DNA of 64,000 nucleotides, taken from contig OZ024747.1 of the NCBI GenBank assembly GCA_964016885.1, positions 66,712,001-66,776,000 of the forward strand. The letters run 5' to 3'. This document shows positions 26,351-26,546 of the stretch, piece by piece (position 1 is the first letter of the stretch; each line of letters starts with the position of its first letter). Source of the DNA: Eledone cirrhosa. Lineage: Eukaryota. Both the position numbers and the translations under genes were made by a program. The notes under the pieces were generated by a model. That model made no database searches. It had not been told where the DNA came from and saw only the letters and a program-made list of their open reading frames with translations.

Positions 26351-26546
26351 AGGAACAAGTAAGACCCCGACGGCTGAGCTCAAGCCGTTTCGACGGCTAA
26401 TTCTGGAGTCCAGAATTAGCCGTCGAAACGGCTTGAGCTCAGCCGTCGGGGTCTTACTTGTTCCTATTACCCACTCTACTACCCTAAGTATTGAGTACTT
26501 TGGTGCGTTATGGTCCACCTGGTTCCTTACCACATTTCCTTCGTTA
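26351..26546 (+). mobile_element. Palindromic half-hammerhead element (perfect 57-bp arms + ~80-bp tail) in (TA)n
   Basis: 26351-26407 and 26409-26465 are exact reverse complements. Each arm contains GAAA-CGGCT-tgagctc-AGCCG-TC. Confidence 0.9.

Follow-up and report, generated by a model that had tools for sequence, protein, structure and literature searches.

The five short palindromes in the window (the whole 64,000-nt stretch of DNA analysed here) are the shortest insertions of a Hydra-type Penelope-like retrotransposon (PLE) with a unit of 3.53 kb. Each insertion very likely comprises two cDNAs, one primed on each strand of a (TA)n target; in the probable fuller reading of these sequences, both ran off the capped 5' end of an RNA that begins 41 nt upstream of a hammerhead cut, and were then joined end to end. 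The family includes a parent element and long copies with a complete hammerhead, and its insertions exhibit outer ends at two TAT motifs, a tail on one arm only, pairs in which either arm may be the longer, a common stop point with an extra G, varied junctions, and jump junctions.

Element positions are numbered from 0, the first base after the predicted hammerhead cut, which corresponds to window position 26448. The features of the best-preserved copy (26351) and the remaining four copies are as follows:

26352..26407, minus strand: tail-less arm, element −39 to +16, inverted and ending in (TA)n, with an outer end common to 13,600 arms
26406, plus strand: G immediately 5' of −41, at a position occupied by C or T in long copies; a base possibly derived from the cap
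26407..26547, plus strand: tail-bearing arm, element −41 to +99, beginning exactly at the family-wide stop point and 96–98% identical over −41 to +102 to an intact tandem unit (L237)
26414..26424, plus strand: 3' strand of hammerhead stem II, from alignment and pair counts
26425..26452, plus strand: GAAA, stem III with the palindromic loop GAGCTC, UC, the predicted cut at 26447/26448 and the 3' strand of stem I, from sequence and from alignment and pair counts
26465..26467, plus strand: internal TAT (+17 to +19), the end of tail-less arms and putative reverse transcriptase (RT) start site 2
26468..26547, plus strand: 80-nt tail ending in TAT (+97 to +99), putative RT start site 1
36915..37105, minus strand: second two-arm insertion, main subfamily, with a centre different from that of 26351
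49518..49671, minus strand: diverged two-arm insertion, sister subfamily, its tail-less arm without stem III
29705..29841, plus strand: sister-subfamily insertion, an inverted tail-less arm (to about −35) fused directly to a tail
13696..13786, plus strand: insertion of which the tail and about 10 nt of inverted arm remain

All five lie where the preliminary description had placed them, and a BLAST search of the window (word size 7, query 26351–26546) matched these five and nothing else. Copies 26351 and 36915 had both been described as perfect palindromes. This holds for 26351, with perfect 58-bp arms including flanking TA (26349–26406 and 26410–26467) around a central AGT and a hairpin z of −18.5 (as-stable shuffles, 0 of 200); copy 36915 is not a perfect palindrome because of one arm mismatch. 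The arm of 26351 reads as reported, with GAAA at 26425–26428, stem III, UC, the cut at 26447/26448 and GGGGU. In this copy the mirror arm could just as well account for the G at 26406. Copies 49518 and 29705 are members of a sister subfamily whose stem II differs. A short repeat ending in (TA)n, possibly a SINE, lies directly upstream of copy 26351 (26157–26288) and also at about 23500–23650, and recurs in fetched loci.

The family is very large. The genome matches a 29-nt piece of the tail exactly at 28,415 places (none for the reversed control), giving at least 28,415 tails, and a stem III/cut-site piece at 38,884. Among the first 30 tail loci, a complete hammerhead lies upstream in five, in three of which the end of an ORF is reached within 1.5 kb. 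Tails continue into a 5' UTR at 304 places genome-wide, and in tandem units the ORF begins at +190. Nine fetched stretches carry tandem units of 3.53–3.54 kb, most with open ORFs of 717–719 aa; the units are 100% identical within one array and 98.6–99.7% identical between arrays, and the ORF-bearing arrays reach 14 kb. The suggested Penelope-like origin, with a progenitor in which the catalytic strand is linked to an ORF for RT and a putative GIY-YIG-type domain, is borne out by these tandem units with their 717-aa ORF. The Penelope-type organisation of tandem or partial-tandem pLTRs with an inverted, 5'-truncated copy is likewise present.

The AlphaFold model of the 717-aa protein (pLDDT 93) has telomerase TERT as its first-ranked Foldseek match (E 1e-8, TM 0.33). 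Sequence searches of Pfam, NCBIfam and PDB found no match to the ORF itself; one of its homologues matches RVT_1. It carries RWR at residues 37–39 and DKT, and its homologues carry RWK or RWR together with DKT. The C-terminal part is a putative GIY-YIG-type endonuclease, assigned by the motifs VIY..YIG, R, H, E and N, which are conserved in the homologue alignment; no profile match to GIY-YIG was obtained, and none appeared among the 49 Foldseek matches listed, for which the query was the whole protein and not the domain alone. As in the definition of the Hydra clade given in the available part of PMC8557442, the protein has a CxCx5C linker, lacks CCHH in the endonuclease, and has CxxC and CxH flanking E and N. 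These motifs and the (TA)n insertion sites point to membership of the Hydra clade. There are 402 full-length homologues of the ORF, nearly all of them unnamed.

In L023:300-1500, the stem III and tail of this family meet, at about −28, a Hydra-type endonuclease and 3' UTR of a different kind, and in L106, upstream of 1500, they meet unrelated DNA at about −28; these chimaeras are attributed to between-family recombination or template switching. Next to family copies lie further ORFs that are RT- or GIY-YIG-like and probably belong to different PLE clades: L115:1456-3597 (a match to RVT_1, E 3e-15), L117:206-995 and L122:2009-2675. Within the window, an inverted repeat in (TA)n at 13796–16395 has 719-nt arms of 100% identity with about 100 nt extra on one arm, and encloses a fragment of a Hydra-type endonuclease (14592–14933, 31% identity to the L237 ORF, E 3e-15); it is likely a second Hydra family of the same one-tail design. 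A second repeat in (TA)n at 23675–26118 (294-nt arms of 100% identity, about 30 nt extra on one arm) encloses a weak RT match (25626–25766, E 9e-4) and is likely another PLE insertion. A third, at 18133–18721, also in (TA)n, has 257-nt arms separated by 34 nt, with a further 40 nt or so on one of them, and parts of it recur in many fetched loci. A hammerhead scan of these three repeats found none.

The short arm had been interpreted as the 3' half of a type I hammerhead with a long stem II, and the complete hammerhead is present in the long copies. The stem II partner strand and catalytic core lie 65–87 nt upstream of the cut. The catalytic strand had been described as absent; it is missing from all short copies, including every copy in the window, and is present genome-wide in about 5,000 long arms (2,841, plus 2,159 in the youngest subfamily). 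The core is UUGANAA or CUGANAA. A progenitor with CUGANGA, as previously predicted, did not emerge from the genome search, in which all 22 matches were junction or chance matches on inspection. By hand count, 100 listed of the 2,841 arms comprise 64 with U3-A8, 34 with a C3/A8 mismatch and two others; UUGAGAA (U3-A8) occurs in 99 of 100 listed arms of the youngest subfamily, and U3-A8 in 22 of 22 array units. The U3-A8 core is a known PLE variant according to the available part of PMC4209133. Core position 7 varies freely. A search of Rfam gave no hammerhead among the 150 of 298 matches listed.

When 24 natural copies were aligned, 93% of cells in the three helices were paired, and at three stem II pairs both bases differ between two subfamilies, a covariation that represents few independent events because it reflects a single split. 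Tailed arms ending exactly at 0, the cut site, number about 90, compared with about 24 and 31 at two control positions (each hand-classified from 100 listed); ends here are thus about threefold commoner than at neighbouring positions, an excess that the G-run may inflate. Against ribozyme activity, the hammerhead is not the minimum free energy fold, the constrained fold lying 2.4 kcal/mol above it, and the C3/A8 subfamily has amplified well despite its mismatched core. The long copies of this subfamily count against a strict need for cis cleavage. About 85–90% of arms carry the 3' half of the hammerhead only.

The insertions have a constant layout of (TA)n, inverted arm, forward arm, (TA)n. 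Arm ends were set by ungapped extension, as gapped local alignment overshoots via the complementarity of stem II. Each type of arm has a fixed outer end at a TAT motif, +17 for tail-less and +97 for tailed arms, the two motifs being 80 nt apart. Of 30 tail-less arms, 26 have an inverted tailed partner within 500 nt and none has a tail-less partner, the rest being long (two) or solo (two). In 95 tailed insertions, a set that overlaps these 30 arms, a partner could be called automatically in 63, and it carried a tail in two of the 63. The same one-tail design is found in insertions of 1–6 kb and in the 14-kb arrays. Among 17 long pairs there are 8 whose tail-less arm exceeds the tailed one by more than 100 nt. 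Long arms pair with each other: head-to-head pairs make up 50 of 100 listed core matches, whereas long arms are 17 of 162 overall. The nearest match of an arm over 185 nt is its own partner, ties included, in 19 of 22 cases, a similarity that could also arise from one active master or from gene conversion. The centres of 17 parsed insertions take 15 distinct forms. Centres in the family cluster in the loop of the long stem II, as had been expected. Small head-to-tail tandems also exist (L207/L208 and G000:C2:356030079-356031001, with periods of 257 and 299 bp); the 257-bp tandems consist of the leader from −44 to +213 and are retrozyme-like but lack the catalytic strand.

The inner ends of the arms converge on a common stop point. 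A set of 120 loci, selected by tail or tail-less end, supplied 162 arms, of which 16 stop at −23 to −33; 127 of the remaining 146 end at −34 to −46, followed by 2 of 19 at −47 to −59, and 11 pass −130. The stop is a band rather than a single base, and ends at −42 to −45 are partly due to microhomology, some being truly templated. Solo arms end at the same point. At −42, long arms have C or T in 50 of 50 cases. Genome-wide, C or T occupies this position in 17,643 arms and a purine in 5,258, with 87 G and 13 A in the first 100 by hand count; 47 of the 87 G are mirror-compatible, and about 40 G and 7 A remain after removal of those that the opposite arm could supply (also by hand). Arms with a non-parental G before −41 number about 4,600 genome-wide. 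As controls, a G precedes ends at −40 in 16 of the first 100 of 6,037 arms (about 970) and precedes −45 in 166 arms. An untemplated G has been read as a copied cap in work on L1 (PMC9341517, available part). The sister subfamily, with a different loop II, has the same TTAGT at −41 and stops at −40/−41; its G signal is weak (6 G to 1 A, several of them mirror-compatible).

The A at −41 lies within TCAGT or TTAGT, with an AT-rich box about 30 nt upstream. By comparison with consensus motifs, these may be initiator-like and TATA-like, respectively; inspection by eye revealed no downstream promoter element. We rejected a splice acceptor at −40, as the ends keep the AG and share no common upstream exon. 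Sequencing depth falls about 15-fold at the bin edge next to −41 in three of four runs (one study, possibly the assembly's own sample; not copy number), a drop that is not counted as support. At the stop point, the centres of L015, L018 and L163 contain extended stretches of T or A, which might reflect repeated copying of the template end by RT or the addition of As.

Long copies behave differently at this point. At 70 of the 304 places where a tail continues into the leader, the sequence was followed further: 45 continue for at least 1.5 kb (25 of them for the whole unit; four are units of one array), and of these long ORF-bearing copies none stops at −34 to −47, 39 passing this interval and six ending earlier. 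The other 25 contain only 143–939 nt of the unit before a junction. Of these short ORF-leader copies, 14 join onto a stop-point start, six onto the exact cut site and five elsewhere, several with an A-run at the junction. Jumps from the stop point land on positions +160 to +920; L206 and L230 are such products, with only 317–918 nt of the unit, and are not ORF-bearing copies ending at the stop point. At these junctions RT may have jumped to the 3' end of an RNA after reaching a 5' end at −41 or 0.

There is a small chance that twin priming is right but that the stop is an uncapped break or an RT stall in loop II, caused by a nuclease cut, a bound protein or RNA structure, with the G produced by a bias in terminal addition or microhomology. 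Such a cause would suit a stop that is a band, 6–7 nt past stem II in both subfamilies, with about half of its G mirror-compatible and with no long ORF copy ending there. However, the G is specific to −42 (about 4,600 arms, compared with about 970 at −41 and 166 at −46), and a stall would be expected on entering the stem and in long cDNAs too, yet none of the 45 stops there.

Collapse of long head-to-head insertions into short palindromes after integration is quite improbable as a general explanation. Copies that have clearly collapsed at direct repeats do exist (L006, L011, L020 and window copy 49518), but collapse predicts neither a fixed −41 end with a non-parental G, nor the same end in solo arms, nor jumps into the ORF leader, and deletion between the stem II repeats would give a full-loop form that was found once. 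It is more improbable still that the palindromes form a self-propagating non-autonomous element (SINE-, retrozyme- or MITE-like) copied as a unit. The copy number is high and some centres recur (one form in about 20 of 100 listed), but recurring centres occur in more than one subfamily, and the ends are asymmetric and not terminal inverted repeats. The separate non-autonomous element of the preliminary description is contradicted by the 15 centres in 17 insertions and by the continuum of one design up to 14-kb ORF arrays. A MITE or DNA transposon was rejected on its asymmetric ends, variable centres and RT parent (target duplications are unreadable in (TA)n), and a non-LTR retrozyme on the head-to-head arrangement of short copies without a core, though a few 257–299-bp tandems exist.

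The stem II fold-back put forward earlier, in which one cDNA self-primes its own mirror arm, can hardly be credited: the centres do cluster in loop II, and self-priming on an antisense template has been proposed for PLE palindromes (PMC3846280, available part), but solo arms stop at the same place, and the predicted product (mirror arm, then forward loop) has one match genome-wide against 13,600 tail-less arms, and even that copy retains no more than the first few bases of the loop, with unrelated DNA after them, and differs from what was predicted. Fold-back is refuted by this near-absence and by the 8 of 17 long pairs in which the arm that should be the copy exceeds its supposed template in length.

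Under the reading of two cDNAs run off a capped end, the endonuclease of the element would nick both (TA)n strands, and RT would start at +97 for one strand and at +17 for its counterpart, with one RNA or one class of RNA as template for both. Transcription would begin at position −41, inside loop II; the cDNAs would run off the capped end there, with the G copied from the cap, and the two cDNA ends would be joined by microhomology or filler. The catalytic strand would then be missing because it lies upstream of the transcription start, and not because a mirror image replaced it. Two-strand priming would fit the in vitro behaviour of the anole PLE, in which both strands are cut and then extended from two internal start sites that bound a tail (PMC11167929). 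Against this mechanism, both start sites here have TAT in common with the target, whereas the anole enzyme needs no target homology.

A second template class must be assumed, because a linear mRNA primed at its 3' end predicts full-length copies ending at −41, and none was found among the 45. The template for long arms and tandem arrays would have no end at −41, and there are hints that it is either a hammerhead-processed circle, as proposed in the available part of PMC4209133, or read-through from upstream. We tentatively suggest, as a possibility on which we would not insist, that the hammerhead acts as a switch between two templates: a linear capped RNA beginning in loop II and a circle cut at both ends. 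The linear RNA would start with a half-ribozyme and, after the 3' hammerhead cut, would retain RT start sites only in the leader, so that it could yield abortive mirror stumps only; only RNA cut at both ends and circularised would let RT pass from the leader into the 3' end, making long arms and identical arrays. If so, the absence of stops at −41 in the 45 long copies, the 6 of 25 junctions at the cut site and the 100%-identical units would be genomic evidence for the proposed circular intermediate, and about 85–90% of arms would record the abortive route.

Inverted pLTRs, junction palindromes and one-sided tails have already been described (PMC3846280 and PMC8557442, available parts), and novelty lies neither in the element class nor in inverted copies or tails; what the junction record adds is that the copying mechanism becomes testable at base resolution. 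The route of inverted PLE insertion, its template and the role of the hammerhead have been called open (PMC8557442, in the part available, and PMC11167929). No paper was found on a one-tail pairing count, cap-marked run-off or twin priming for PLEs in a search whose coverage excluded most subscription papers, including older Penelope work, and such palindromes are not mentioned in the available portion of PMC13282606. With tens of thousands of junctions, with two RT starts, a likely transcription start and a cut site placed to the base, and with intact natural ORFs in 100%-identical arrays, the family makes twin priming, cap run-off and the circle model directly testable. For repeat annotators there is also a warning that MITE-like palindromes in (TA)n can be retrotransposon stumps.

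In L1 twin priming, two target strands prime cDNA and an inversion results, the two pieces of which do not overlap. The insertions described here resemble those of L1 in the proposed two-strand priming that gives an inversion and in an extra G at complete 5' ends (for the G, PMC9341517, available part); unlike L1, both arms copy the same stretch, producing a mirror.

Members of the Hydra clade, as presented in the available sections of PMC8557442, share with this family a single ORF with RT followed by a C-terminal GIY-YIG-type domain (putative in this family), RWR/RWK, DKT, the CxCx5C linker, no internal CCHH, CxxC and CxH around E and N, the (TA)n target, tandem and inverted insertions, and a tail on one end. 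The unit is longer here (3.5 kb, compared with 1.1–3.0 kb for the listed Hydra families, many of them incomplete), as is the tail (80 nt, compared with 30–40). The hammerhead also differs, with a U3-A8 or C3/A8 core, a loop II of ~30 nt and a stem III of 5–6 bp, whereas all Hydra hammerheads in File S2 of the same source, as far as it was available, have CUGANGA and short loops, including the only cephalopod family listed. In Poseidon PAc of the green anole (PMC11167929), both target strands are cut and extended, as proposed here, two internal RT starts bound the tail, a dimer is predicted and the hammerhead lies next to the ORF start; PAc differs in belonging to another clade and in having starts 30–40 nt apart inside the ORF, without target homology. 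Its main text does not connect the two starts with head-to-head palindromes, with a one-tail rule or with capped run-off, and none of the RNA reads had an end at the PAc cut site.

The PLE hammerheads and circle model of PMC4209133 (available part) agree with the present family in the hammerhead within the pLTR, the U3-A8 variant (in Cercyon), the long helix II, the palindromic loop III, opposite-strand pairs 100–700 bp apart and a proposed circular template. They differ in that stem III is here long enough for a monomer fold and that about 85–90% of arms have the 3' half only. Penelope elements of Adineta vaga, in the accessible part of PMC3846280, show the same head-to-head inverted pLTRs, junction palindrome, optional tail, and TATA- and initiator-like motifs in the pLTR. 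These were explained there by self-priming on an antisense template, whereas the data presented here favour two sense-templated cDNAs.
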